Positions 801 through 10,064 of a DNA stretch of 10,064 nt are shown here, one piece after another. The stretch lies in assembly GCF_050015995.1 (NCBI RefSeq), contig NZ_JBNHEP010000288.1, forward strand, positions 19,547 to 29,610. Reading direction: 5' to 3'. Position 1 is the first letter of the stretch. Each line of letters starts with the position of its first letter. This DNA is from Dapis sp. BLCC M229. Lineage in GTDB: Bacteria; Cyanobacteriota; Cyanobacteriia; Cyanobacteriales; Microcoleaceae. The notes beneath the pieces were generated by a model. The model was not told where the DNA came from. It searched no databases and was given only the letters and a program-made list of their open reading frames with translations. A program made the position numbers and the translations under genes.

Positions 801-1280
801 GTGGTTCCACCTAGCTATTACTGTATAGTGGCTAATCCTGTATTAAGAGATAGTAATGGTCAACTGGTGGTAGATGAGTATGGTCAAATTAGACTTAGAT
901 ATGGCGATCGCGAAATTCGCTTTGCTCAAGACCCTTTCCCTTTATATCCAGGAGAAATACTCGAAGAAGATGTAACTCAACTACAGATAGTTGAGACAAA
1001 CCAAGCACTACGTCTCAAAGCAATACGAGATTTTACTGATACAGTCACCGTTGCAGGAGAGTCTCAAACCGTCATTCGTGCTACAGGGGATGAATGGTTA
1101 TTTGAGGGGCCGGGAACTTACACCCCAAGGGTAGAAGTTGAAGTCATAGATATAGTTACCGCTAAAATAATTAAACCTAACCAAGCCTTACGACTCCTGG
1201 CAAGACAAAATTGTATAGACCGTCAAGGTAACAGACGTAGAGCGGGGGAAAAATGGTTGGTCAGGGAAGAAGGTGACTAA
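801..1280 (+). pseudogene. MVP relic, N-terminal fragment (vault repeat domains R1-R2); ORF-track ORF with a GTG pseudo-start
   Basis: Contains HYC(I/T)VANPV, [9 protein letters not shown] and [11 protein letters not shown], which are signature motifs of MVP repeat domains. The reading frame actually continues upstream to 609 into MVP N-terminal sequence. One HIP1 site lies inside (904-911). Confidence 0.8.
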
Positions 1281-1369
1281 TATTGATATTCAGTCCGTGG
1301 AGCCAGTTGATGAGGAGACGTTGAAGAGTTTACAGAAGTCGGTACAACTAGCAATTCAAATTACTACTG

Positions 1370-1951
1370 ATGCTCAGGAAGCTGCTGCCTGCCCGTCGAG
1401 ATGCTGAAAGAATTGAACAGGAGGCTAAGGCGAGGTTGGACAGGCAGATAATTGTAGACAGGGGTGCTTCGGAAGTAGAGCGGAAACAATTATTGGAGTT
1501 AGAGGCGGAAAATGATGCTATTGAGGCGACGGGTATAGCTAGTGCTGAGGCTAGGGCGAAGGCAGAAGCGGCTCAGATTCAAGGCCAGTTAGCGGTGAAT
1601 TTGGCACAGCAGGAAGTAGAAGCAGCACGCATTTGCCATGAGGCGGAAATGGCTCAGTTGAGGGCGCGTCACGAGACTGAGTTAGCCCATCAGCAGACAC
1701 TGAATAATTTAGAGATTGAGAAGGCAAGGCAAATGGCTGAAATTACTGCCACTGAGTTTCAGCAAAAAGTGGAGGCTTTGGGGGCTGAGACAATTCAGGC
1801 GATCGCTCAAGCTGGCCCAGAAATGCAGGCCAGGTTGTTAGAGGGGCTTGGTCTTCAGAGTGTTTTGATTACTGATGGTAAGAGTCCGATTAATCTTTTT
1901 AGTACGGCTAATGGGTTGATTAATCCGAATAATGCCACAAATAAATTCTGA
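1370..1951 (+). pseudogene. MVP relic, C-terminal fragment (cap-helix coiled coil plus cap-ring). The ATG at 1370 is a fortuitous internal start created by the frameshift.
   Basis: The Ala/Glu/Gln-rich heptad region followed by GPEMQ...LITDG.SPINLF matches the MVP C-terminus. Upstream MVP-homologous sequence (QSVEPVD...[10 protein letters not shown]) is in a different frame (frame 1, 1273-1389). One HIP1 site lies inside (1799-1806). Confidence 0.8.
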
Positions 1952-2233
1952 TTCTTGATTTGTTGAAAATTTTTTGAAAGCAAGGGGTAGGAAGGAATTT
2001 TTTCTATTAAAAAACTATTGTCTATTCAGGCAAGTCTCTACTTTTTTCTCTCTTCCATATTGCCTGTTTCTTTGTAAGCATTTCTGTGCCGGAATGCTCC
2101 GCAAACAGCTATTAGCGGTCAGCTCTCATTTTTTTAATAAATGAAGTAAGCATTGTTTAAGACTTCTGAAGTTACCAGGGGAACTTTTAATTTATATTTA
2201 TAATTAGATTAAATCTGTCAATGCTAACTTCTG

Positions 2234-2385
2234 CTTTAAAGCAGGGCTATTTCATTCTAGAATAAACTGAGGATTTTACTAGCTTTTAGAGATTGGTTGA
2301 TATAACCTTCAACCCTTGAAAAGACATATTTTCTTTAAATGCAGAAAAAGTCATAAATTAGAACGAAATAGCCCTGGCTTTAAAG
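2234..2385. repeat. Nested 20-bp inverted repeat pair (2234-2253 and 2365-2385, one indel) bracketing about 110 bp; the left arm contains the 14-bp palindrome ctgctttaaagcag
   Basis: ctttaaagcagggctatttc compared with the reverse complement of gaaatagccctggctttaaag, which is ctttaaagccagggctatttc. Confidence 0.6.
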
Positions 2386-2451
2386 GGTATAACTTATTAG
2401 TTATTAAAATCGCTCTGAAAGCTAAAATCTGACGGCTGAATACTTACCGGA

Positions 2452-2490
2452 TAATTAATAATTAAATAATTAAATAATTAAATAATTAAA
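2452..2490. repeat. Microsatellite (TAATTAAA)n: four full copies plus a 7-bp partial copy
   Basis: taattaaa at 2459-2466, 2467-2474, 2475-2482 and 2483-2490, preceded by taattaa at 2452-2458. Confidence 0.9.
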
Positions 2491-2684
2491 CAGTTTAGGT
2501 TAAAAGCCTCCCCTTTGGATAGGGGAAAAAAGCGGTCGTTTGCGGAGCATTCCGTAGGATGGGATGGCGAGGTTTCCTCGCTAGCCTCCAATCTCCCCTT
2601 GAGAAATAAATTTTTTCCTTATTGGTCAATCCTCTCCCTTTTAGGGTAAGGTAATTATCCATTATCCATTAATGAAGTTTCTTT

Positions 2685-3023
2685 TTAAATTGTGGCTGAA
2701 TTATTCAGACTAATTTGATATACCATAACTGCTACAGCAGCAATACCAGTTAAAATCATTAACCCCGCAGGCATCATTTTACGGGTTTTAACTAAACGGA
2801 TAATAAATGTAATTACTAGAATAGTTGTTATAACTATAGAAAATATTAAACCCCAATATATTCCTATTAGCTGAATAATACCACTAATAATTAGTAGTAA
2901 ACCGCTGACACTACCAGATATTAAGGATATTTTGCTGCCTACTTTTGTATATCCAATAATGCCTCCAACAATTGCTAATATACCATAGGCGATCGCTGCT
3001 ATTATGCCGATATTTATAGTCAT
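2685..3023 (-). CDS. TMEM14 / UPF0136-family small membrane protein (four transmembrane helices)
   Basis: 112-aa ORF with four hydrophobic segments. The motifs GGIIGYTKVGSKISLISG and K(M)MPAGLMILTGIAAVAVMVY resemble the TMEM14 family signatures GGIIGYVKTGSVPSLAAG and KFMPAGLIAGASLLMV. A HIP1 site lies in the coding sequence (2990-2997). Confidence 0.7.
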   Translation of the reverse strand: MTINIGIIAAIAYGILAIVGGIIGYTKVGSKISLISGSVSGLLLIISGIIQLIGIYWGLIFSIVITTILVITFIIRLVKTRKMMPAGLMILTGIAAVAVMVYQISLNNSATI

Positions 3024-3424
3024 TATTATTAAATTCCAAAAACTAAAACTAACTTATACAGCTTATTTGTGGCAATAGCTAGCCAATTTATCAAAACTTA
3101 ATATTGCTTAAATAAGGCTTGCTGATTAACTGATAAAGCATTTACAGATAAAGGCTAAAGCCTTTATTATGTGAAAAAAGTGCAAGCTTTTCGGTCGTTT
3201 AACCTCAAAAAGTTAGCATTTTGAGCAGATAAAGGCCGAAAAATCAAGGGAGAATTATTCCTACTACCTCACTCTAGAATTCCTATTACTCCTAAATTAT
3301 GAATCAAAAGGTCCTCAGCTAATCTTAGTAATTGCTTCATTCTTTCCCAAGCTGATAATGCAGTTCCTCTGTAAGAGGCTAGCTGACTGCAAGTTAGCTG
3401 AATACTTAAAGATTAGATAAAAAG

Positions 3425-3454: not shown

Positions 3455-4052
3455 TCTGTTCTTTGTTCCCAAATTCCGAGAGATTTTATACACAACCAGA
3501 CTGAGGACTACTACAACAGTTTTTGAGATATTTCCCTATTCTCAGGCATATCTGAAGTCGTAAGCATTCAGTTATTAGCTAGCCTCTTACGAAGGAACTA
3601 CATTAACAGCAGTCAGCAATAACAATCAAGTCAGTTATTGGGTAATTAAGTCTAGACAATTTGTAGAGGTGACATAGCAGAGAACTTAGTTTATCCAATC
3701 TGCTTTTCCCTATACTTTTAATTCTTCTAACTTCACTTATCCTGATGCTAGTAACTGGTAGCTAATGACTGATAGCTGAATGTTTACCTTAAGTCAATGT
3801 AAAAAAACAGTAGTTTAGAACTATAAGATAGTAAAATTATAGCAATTCCCATACTGGTAAGGTACAAAATCTGTTTGTTTTAGGGAACAGGGAATAGGGA
3901 AAACTTAACTGGGAATAGAATAGAAATAAATATAGGTGTATCTTATTAGCCTGATAAACGCTATATCTCTATAATTACATGTTTATTTACTCAACAAAAT
4001 TAGTGAAAAAAATAGCCTGTGATTAATCAGTCTATCAAATAATTAATCAATT

Positions 4053-9384: not shown

Positions 9385-9450
9385 TTAGTTCTGATATTAA
9401 TATTTTGCTTAGGGTTTCTAGATAGGAGGTTTTGATTAAGTGAATTGTAA
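9385..9450. repeat. Direct-repeat copy B, immediately upstream of the menE start codon (9379-9381 on the minus strand)
   Basis: See copy A. About 80% identity over about 68 bp, colinear. Confidence 0.8.
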
Positions 9451-9454
9451 AAAA

Positions 9455-10064
9455 GACTATAAATTTCTACTTCTGACTTAATTTTATCTGAGACCAGAGA
9501 AGATTTTGTCGGCAAAATTAGCTGAGGAGCAAAATATTTCATCTGCCACAACTATATGAGGTAAAGTTCAACTCCCTTAAATAGATACAGACTCGAAATT
9601 TCTACTTCTAACTTAATTTTTTCTCAGACAACAGAACATTTGTTGGTCAAATTAGCTGAGGAGCAAAATATTTTATCTGCCACAACTATATAGATAAAGT
9701 TCGACTCCCTCAAACAAATACAGACTCGAAATTTCTACTTCTAACTTAATTTTTTCTCAGACAACAGAACATTTGTTGGTCAAATTAGCTGAGGAGCAAA
9801 ATATTTTATCTGCCACAACTATATAGATAAAGTTCGACTCCCTCAAACAAATACAGACTCGAAATTTCTACTTCTAACTTAATTTTTTCTCAGACAACAG
9901 AACATTTGTTGGTCAAATTAGCTGAGGAGCAAAATATTTTATCTGCCACAACTATATAGATAAAGTTCGACTCCCTCAAACAAATACAGACTCGAAATTT
10001 CTACTTCTGCCTGAATTTTCTCTCAAACCAGAGAAGATTTTGCCAGAGAAATTAGCTGAGGAGC
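9455..10064. repeat. 133-bp tandem repeat array, at least 4.6 copies, running off the right edge of the window. Three identical internal copies flanked by diverged edge copies.
   Basis: Unit starts at 9455, 9588, 9721, 9854 and 9987, period exactly 133. Copies 2-4 are identical (cagactcgaaatttctacttctaacttaattttttctcagacaacagaacatttgttggtcaaattagctgaggagcaaaatattttatctgccacaactatatagataaagttcgactccctcaaacaaata). Copies 1 and 5 are a diverged variant (...ctgagaccagagaagattttgtcggcaaaattagctgaggagc...). 133 is not a multiple of 3 and neither strand has an ORF. Each unit contains an imperfect hairpin, gacaacagaacatttgttggtc, nested in ctcag...ctgag. Confidence 0.9.

Follow-up and report, generated by a model that had tools for sequence, protein, structure and literature searches.

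The spacer between two convergent genes of the marine filamentous cyanobacterium Dapis sp. BLCC M229, a decayed vault-protein gene ending at 1951 and a minus-strand TMEM14 gene with its stop codon at 2685, is an ordinary intergenic repeat mosaic. We analysed a 10,064-nt stretch of contig NZ_JBNHEP010000288.1 (the window), in which the original prediction had singled out positions 2090-2554 as a unit that looks like a MITE (miniature inverted-repeat transposable element), bounded by a 17-bp perfect inverted repeat. That repeat is real: CGGAATGCTCCGCAAAC is found at 2090-2106 and is matched at 2538-2554 by its exact reverse complement, and none of 200 dinucleotide shuffles of the window yielded three matches to the 17-mer at up to three mismatches. 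It consists of two consensus copies of a high-copy unit, here called the small repeat, that face each other 431 bp apart. The left arm is part of a 23-nt insert in a run of heptamers and the right arm is internal to a composite repeat, R (2450-2672); the arms are thus not the ends of an element. Very probably the segment combines spacer DNA with three unrelated kinds of miniature mobile DNA, namely the small repeat, a 135-bp MITE and R. The prediction was right in that the region is made of miniature non-coding mobile repeats and that the repeat nested within it is a true MITE, but the unit and its boundaries were wrong.

Related loci were compared under L-numbers. Two of them, Dapis sp. BLCC M126 (L120) and an identical Logan contig (L125), are collinear with window positions 1814-2241, 2377-2447 and 2678-3100 at 80-95% identity. 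This orthologous spacer retains the left arm with one substitution (GTTTGCAGAGCATTCCG at the arm; CGGAATGCTCTGCAAAC for the small-repeat copy) and all of the unique interior; missing from it are two blocks only, 2242-2376 and 2450-2672. That only the left arm is found there argues that the left is ancestral here and that the right came later, inside another element; judging from the aligned sequences, the left copy of the small repeat (2083-2105) is older than the divergence from Dapis M126. Three other relatives (L118, L121 and L122-124) have an unrelated spacer, which points to rapid turnover of the region. The components of the spacer in the window are as follows.

2074-2127, plus strand: heptamer-run module GTAAGCATT^CAGCTATTAGCGGTCAGCTCTC, host of the left small repeat; ancestral spacer, common to Dapis M126
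2083-2105, plus strand: small repeat copy 1, 23 nt, TCTGTGCCGGAATGCTCCGCAAA, at TT^C, placed by junction tests; one mismatch in L120
2233-2241: left target duplication of the MITE, 9 bp, GCTTTAAAG; the orthologue has a single GCTTTCAAG
2242-2376, plus strand: ISAs1-derived MITE, 135 bp, terminal inverted repeats of the type CAGGGCTATTTCATTCTAG / CTAATTCTTGCTTTATCGGGAC, right end ...TTAGAACGAAATAGCCCTG; absent in the orthologue
2377-2385: right target duplication of the MITE, 9 bp, GCTTTAAAG
2408-2449, minus strand: second heptamer-run module, GTAAGTATTCAGCCGTCAGATTTTAGCTTTCAGAGCG on the minus strand, inverted relative to 2074-2127; ancestral, present in Dapis M126
2450-2672, minus strand: composite repeat R, 223 bp, with an AT-rich array at each end, two halves that bear hairpins, and a middle that varies; absent in the orthologue
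2451-2490: left terminal array of R, a (ATAATTAA)x5.1 microsatellite; (AATAATT)n in other copies of R
2509-2526: hairpin TCCCCT-TTGGAT-AGGGGA, conserved in the left half of R; family consensus CCTCCCCTTttaAGGGGA
2532-2603, minus strand: nested module m4, about 50 nt plus its own 21-nt insert, recognized from copies of R with and without m4
2539-2559, minus strand: small repeat copy 2, 21 nt, TCCTACGGAATGCTCCGCAAA on the minus strand, nested in m4 in R, recognized from empty and filled m4 sites
2654-2671: right terminal array of R, (ATTATCC)x2.6 heptamers, an imperfect inverted match to the left array

The small dispersed repeat

The unit reads TCC-N3-5-GGAATGCTCCGCAAA followed by the target base C, measures 21-23 nt and has the 17-mer as its core; a fuller form is TCC-N3-5-GGAATGCT(N)CGCAAA, with a mini-hairpin TCC...GGA. 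Of the 17 nt in each arm (2090-2106 and 2538-2554), 16 belong to the unit and one is the target base C; the perfect match ends exactly at the arms because the two units have different 5′ parts (TCTGTGC vs TCCTA).

When one genome per species was scanned for exact matches, the 17-mer turned up in at least 114 stretches, mostly one copy each. About 110 of the stretches listed are from Okeania, Dapis, a Trichodesmium metagenome-assembled genome (MAG) and allied MAGs of the Microcoleaceae, the family in which database taxonomy also places Dapis; four are chance matches in unrelated phyla. We collected 127 exact copies, plus 89 variants with one to three mismatches in 815 kb, where about 2 were expected. 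A sample of 417 kb of related metagenome contigs, chosen for a reason other than its repeat content, has 15 copies of the core (36 per Mb), where 0.0008 copies would be expected by chance. When all instances were aligned, conservation was limited to the 17-mer and about 9 nt upstream (tTTtCCtnn), beyond which the sequences are unrelated. Neighboring copies up to 1 kb apart form 43 direct and 17 inverted pairs spaced by 22-892 bp; with spacing and orientation so variable, facing pairs a few hundred bp apart are commonplace. In L111 (1922-2779; MAG08_tar_biofilm, JAXHSW010000161.1) the 17-mer is found in each unit of an 84-bp tandem array of at least 10 units, so the small repeat can also be amplified within a minisatellite.

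The small repeat inserts between TT and C without target duplication. The base after the unit is C in 179 of 185 copies, and TT precedes it in 122 of 155. When units were removed in silico, the rejoined 18-mer was found exactly elsewhere for 14 of 125, compared with 0 of 125 for each of four shifted-junction controls. For the left copy of the window, the rejoined site, GTAAGCATT joined to CAGCTATTA (GTAAGCATTCAGCTATTA), occurs 14 times in related loci and the junctions shifted by one base never. The junction in m4, CCATCCC/T/CGACCGC, is empty in nine copies and filled with a 21-23-nt unit in nine others, and three more copies (L073, L062, L032) have deeper nesting there. In L106 (4008), L113 (3127) and L073 (560) this m4 junction is taken up by a sibling small repeat, ACCCTACGGGAAGCTRCGCTA(A). 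It forms its mini-hairpin with CCC...GGG instead of the TCC...GGA of the unit, so that the stem is kept by a compensatory difference, and in L073 the unit of the window is nested inside the sibling.

Perfectly complementary flanks of at least 7 bp directly surround about 10% of small-repeat copies, compared with 1.4% of controls, and some copies lie in the loop of GTAG...CTAC palindromes. This is a tendency and no rule; the idea that every small repeat lies within a larger hairpin's loop was rejected.

The heptamer AGCGGTC had been noted just inside both arms. It is present, at 2114-2120 and 2531-2537, as a direct and not an inverted pair: the left one is a heptamer of the module at 2074-2127 and the right one is the terminus of m4. 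The modules at 2074-2127 and 2408-2449, which face each other, both start with GTAAG(C/T)ATTCAGC, and this leader recurs at 3559-3572 and beside many repeat copies.

The MITE and the composite repeat R

The block at 2242-2376 is a true MITE of a known kind: its terminal inverted repeats start with CAGGG, target duplications of 8-10 bp accompany the family, it is multi-copy and non-coding, its ends are shared with insertion sequences (ISs), and its orthologous site is empty. The inverted repeats, CAGGGCTATTTCATTCTAG... / ...GAACGAAATAGCCCTG with a CTAGAACGAAATAGCCCTG-type right end, are about 20 nt long, within the 14-22 bp of the ISAs1 family, whose inverted repeats start with CAGGG and which makes a 10-bp direct repeat (PMC11946415, PMC6305408). 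L120 and L125 have one GCTTTCAAG and no MITE. The nested inverted repeat that had been reported inside the segment is present (2235-2259 / 2359-2383; 25 nt, 84%) and belongs to this element, and the palindrome ctgctttaaagcag noted in it turns out to be the target duplication where it meets the CAG tip.

Scanning metagenomes with the first 20 nt of the MITE gave 53 stretches, many at contig ends. From these we distinguished 33 copies of 134-136 bp, 24 of them flanked by perfect 8-10-bp target duplications of differing sequence, and several more by duplications with one or two mismatches. The hairpin fold has z = -4.8. Plasmid pANACY.01 of Anabaena cylindrica carries a copy that is 71% identical, with identical ends and a 10-bp duplication. 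The MITE ends are identical to the 18-nt ends of two plasmid ISs, each with a 10-bp duplication: one of 1154 bp on pGMOR2 of Gloeobacter morelensis (L181 1370-2523) and one of 1206 bp on pNFSY07 of Nostoc flagelliforme (L180 2501-3706). The open reading frames (ORFs) of both are annotated as ISAs1 transposase, with domains DDE_Tnp_1_assoc and DDE_Tnp_1. A protein search showed homologues in Nostoc, Scytonema and Moorea; none of the best 120 is named from Dapis or Okeania. We infer that the MITE was moved in trans by an ISAs1-family transposase. MITE-end matches that have no right end nearby were considered as candidate full-length ISs, and all are diverged MITE copies; an apparent leftward extension of the MITE in L168 is chance AT-rich similarity.

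The family is probably Nezha, a cyanobacterial MITE (Zhou et al., 2008; reference copy NC_007413:2978180-2978317) of about 135 bp with a 10-bp direct repeat and ends shared with an IS, ISNpu3 (PMC3184786, PMC6042816); the likeness is one of published size and direct repeat.

By blastn against the related loci the R family spans 2444-2672, thus running 118 bp beyond the predicted right boundary at 2554. Near full-length copies were found in L101 (81% over 229 nt), L115, L009, L106 and L102. The AT-rich arrays are inverted to each other imperfectly (2444-2464 vs 2652-2672, 81%), and the left one accounts for the microsatellite that had been reported in the segment. The hairpin TCCCCTTTGGATAGGGGA, previously put at 2507-2524, is also present, 2 nt away at 2509-2526. 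R has no clear target duplication, and at one junction it shares 5 nt (CTTAC/GTAAG) with the target; it starts 12 nt past the TMEM14 stop codon.

On its minus strand m4 reads ...GGTCG/ATTGGAG..GCGAGGAAACCTCGCCATCCC(unit)CGACCGC. Copies of R fall into three tiers of nesting: the core only (L024, L005), the core with m4 (L009), and the core with m4 and a small repeat within it (the window and L101). This makes the right 17-mer a nested insert of the third order.

R resembles other composite repeats, such as bacterial interspersed mosaic elements and MITEs with minisatellites, in being modular, with AT-rich arrays whose copy number varies and a middle, also variable, in which small repeats collect. 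It differs in that neither a target duplication nor a cognate transposase was identified, and its termini are imperfect inverted heptamer arrays in place of defined terminal inverted repeats. A promoter and terminator scan of 1900-2750 gave counts at the level of shuffles and found no terminator in R; that R affects termination of TMEM14 is a conjecture.

Probable insertions and alternative explanations

Taking together the observed copy numbers, junctions, filled and empty sites, nesting order and ends shared with ISAs1 ISs, the spacer was very probably assembled as follows. A small repeat inserted at TT^C in the heptamer run of the spacer before the split from Dapis M126. The 135-bp MITE inserted with a 9-bp duplication, presumably through an ISAs1-family DDE transposase acting in trans on the CAGGG ends. 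R inserted beside the TMEM14 stop codon, bringing with it the opposite copy of the small repeat nested in m4, itself nested in R. The small repeat could have moved by single-strand "peel-and-paste"; our best guess at the enzyme is an HUH/Y1 protein of the IS200/IS605 or REP-associated tyrosine transposase (RAYT; REP, repetitive extragenic palindromic) type, because insertion is site-specific and without duplication and the unit bears a hairpin. Cyanobacteria are rich in HUH/Y1-type genes (PMC6006769). A bolder proposal, which we regard as tentative and somewhat doubtful, is that the unit TCC-N3-5-GGAATGCTCCGCAAA is an actively mobile "nano-transposon" of the Okeania/Dapis/Trichodesmium clade, copied by a trans-acting enzyme, for instance an HUH/Y1 transposase of the same types, into TT^C of single-stranded DNA.

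Several points weigh against this account. A tblastn search with the ISAs1 transposase found no match in 1.28 Mb of DNA sampled from relatives, the sample also used for the whole-unit searches below, and mobilization in trans within this lineage is something we infer. No enzyme was linked to the small repeat in this analysis, and flanking stems surround about 10% of its copies vs 1.4% of controls. The absence of full copies of the segment holds for the 1.28 Mb of related DNA; the host genome itself lay outside that search. The choice between insertion here and precise deletion in Dapis M126 rests on parsimony: the target duplication backs insertion of the MITE, and R carries no such mark.

That last alternative, in which the window is ancestral and Dapis M126 lost both the MITE and R by precise deletion, we consider improbable. 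In its favor, R has no target duplication and there is a 5-nt microhomology at one junction; for the MITE, however, the single copy of the 9-bp target in Dapis M126 is the classical empty-site pattern, and parsimony prefers a pair of insertions, by elements that are multi-copy and polymorphic elsewhere, to a pair of independent precise deletions. Deletion is thus unlikely for the MITE given its single target, and less easily excluded for R.

The reading of 2090-2554 as one MITE, with the 17-mers as its terminal inverted repeats, is very improbable. A perfect 17-nt inverted repeat does bound a non-coding segment, and the 17-mer is multi-copy in relatives, but its copies are mostly single, and the paired ones differ in spacing and orientation and enclose unrelated interiors. 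The 17-mers are not flanked by a direct repeat (...ttctgtgc/CGG on the left and CCG/taggatgg... on the right), so the target-site duplication to be looked for at such ends is lacking. As a whole the 465-bp unit is not a multi-copy element: no locus in the 1.28 Mb of related DNA is collinear across 2090-2554, the interior at 2165-2228 gave one match, the spurious AT-rich extension of a MITE, and that at 2390-2440 gave two weak matches only. The block is not present or absent as a whole either; Dapis M126 keeps the left arm and the interior and is without the two inserted blocks, the right arm among them, and this comparison refutes the reading. The right arm is, moreover, internal to a 223-bp repeat that runs on to 2672. 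AT-richness, which had been taken as a mark of the segment, does not distinguish it, its GC of 31% being close to the 32% or so of most of the window. The claim that it is free of ORFs needs qualifying, as mechanical ORFs at 1974-2144 (plus strand) and 2495-2662 (minus strand) overlap its ends; neither is gene-like.

The other suggestion, a large structured RNA in which the 17-bp stem is the closing helix and the inner repeat forms a second one, is likewise very hard to credit. The predicted fold of the unit is indeed strong (-140 kcal/mol, z = -7.8 vs shuffles), but this is a trivial consequence of the repeats, and the helices belong to separately mobile units. Both the closing stem and the inner helix are missing in Dapis M126, and the spacers of L118, L121 and L122 are unrelated. 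Rfam gave no match in the whole window at E up to 1, and ARAGORN found no tRNA or tmRNA in the window.

Least plausible is an invertible switch with the 17-bp repeats as recombination sites that flip the 431-bp interior: inverted repeats of similar length flank known invertible promoters and there is one weak promoter-like match at 2235-2263, but such matches occur at shuffle level, the window holds no recombinase gene, the right arm arrived recently within another repeat, and the 17-mer occurs hundreds of times per genome.

Related systems, neighboring features and significance

The small repeat finds its closest parallel in the small dispersed repeats (SDRs) of Nostoc; Elhai et al. are said to have described SDR1-8 from Nostoc punctiforme and its relatives in 2008 (Genome Res 18:1484). 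Those repeats and the unit of the window (21-27 nt and 21-23 nt, respectively) are alike in being nearly identical among copies and highly repeated, in lying in non-coding DNA, often inside tandem heptamer runs and other repeats, and in being recognized as insertions at a precise point in otherwise identical sequence. The Nostoc repeats belong to Nostocales, whereas the unit is found in Oscillatoriales (Okeania, Dapis, Trichodesmium-like), and its sequence may set it apart from SDR1-8. Two papers cite the Nostoc punctiforme repeats (PMC3116915, PMC4390886), and according to one of them SDR5 inserts between nucleotides 3 and 4 of HIP1 (PMC4390886). A literal literature search with the unit sequence, the TT^C target and the MITE ends returned no relevant paper. 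By its size and copy number, its precise insertion and its nesting in repeats and heptamer runs, the small repeat is probably an undescribed family of the small-dispersed-repeat kind.

The unit also resembles REP sequences, their hairpin-forming doublets (REPINs) and IS200/IS605 elements as a short, high-copy hairpin unit with specific insertion and no duplication. It differs in having no GTAG/CGTC tag of its own, and REPINs are tight hairpin doublets, whereas the two copies in the window are 431 bp apart. A REPIN-type doublet was rejected on that spacing, the missing GTAG tag and the lack of a RAYT gene in the window; no RAYT or TnpA gene was found associated with the small repeat.

The ORFs of the window comprise the vault fragments, TMEM14, a DUF815 ATPase, TerB, a thioesterase and MenE. 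Those next to the spacer are as follows.

801-1951, plus strand: vault-protein gene fragments, two ORFs, upstream of the segment
2685-3023, minus strand: TMEM14, protein 100% identical over 110 residues to the one recorded for Dapis sp. BLCC M229 and 87-99% identical to Okeania homologues

Two Logan contigs of run SRR33627862 encode identical proteins, and one of them stops at window position 2297, within the repeat region. The vault (MVP) gene is a pseudogene; L118 (6682-9279), a metagenome contig from a relative, has an intact counterpart of 865 aa. Compared with that gene it has lost about 1.26 kb internally, at 1272-1275, and what is left are the ORFs 801-1280 and 1370-1951, with a GC of 46-51% vs 32% in the remainder of the window; the vault remnant of Dapis M126 has 43 aa only.

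Other repeats were seen in the window. A second inverted pair, of a different small repeat, lies at 3351-3384 / 3577-3610 (34 nt, 88%; AGCTAGCCTCTTAC.GAGGAACT.CATTA.CAGC), so facing pairs of small repeats recur within the window. Each copy adjoins the heptamer leader GTAAGYATTCAGC, and the module follows the 17-mer in L045, L047, L068 and L078. The intergenic segments 242-419, 3090-3301 and 3827-3966 are multi-copy in relatives, with up to 9, 38 and 21 blastn matches, respectively, and are probably further MITE-like repeats. At 9449-10064, just upstream of the menE homologue, lies a 133-bp tandem repeat with at least 4.5 units that continues beyond the window's right end, and a 58-nt direct repeat (98% identity) lies at 1-58 / 266-323; Logan contigs break at or near both.

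Okeania genomes hold the most diverse MITE complement among prokaryotes (PMC11602168), which makes a spacer of this sort typical of the clade. Where a cyanobacterial genome is rich in repeats, a long-range inverted repeat, even a perfect one, is not necessarily the mark of an element, and annotating this one as a MITE would be wrong. The MITE that does lie within it is a clean insertion, well documented by its 33 copies, by sites both filled and empty and by autonomous ISs that match it, in a clade of high MITE diversity. With its exact TT^C rule and its nesting, the small repeat extends the phenomenon of small dispersed repeats from Nostocales to marine Oscillatoriales, and it offers a concrete substrate for finding the enzyme responsible. 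Should the tentative nano-transposon proposal prove true, the unit would be one of the smallest mobile DNA units known, and, given its exact junction rule and its hundreds of filled and empty sites, the movement of small dispersed repeats would become directly testable.

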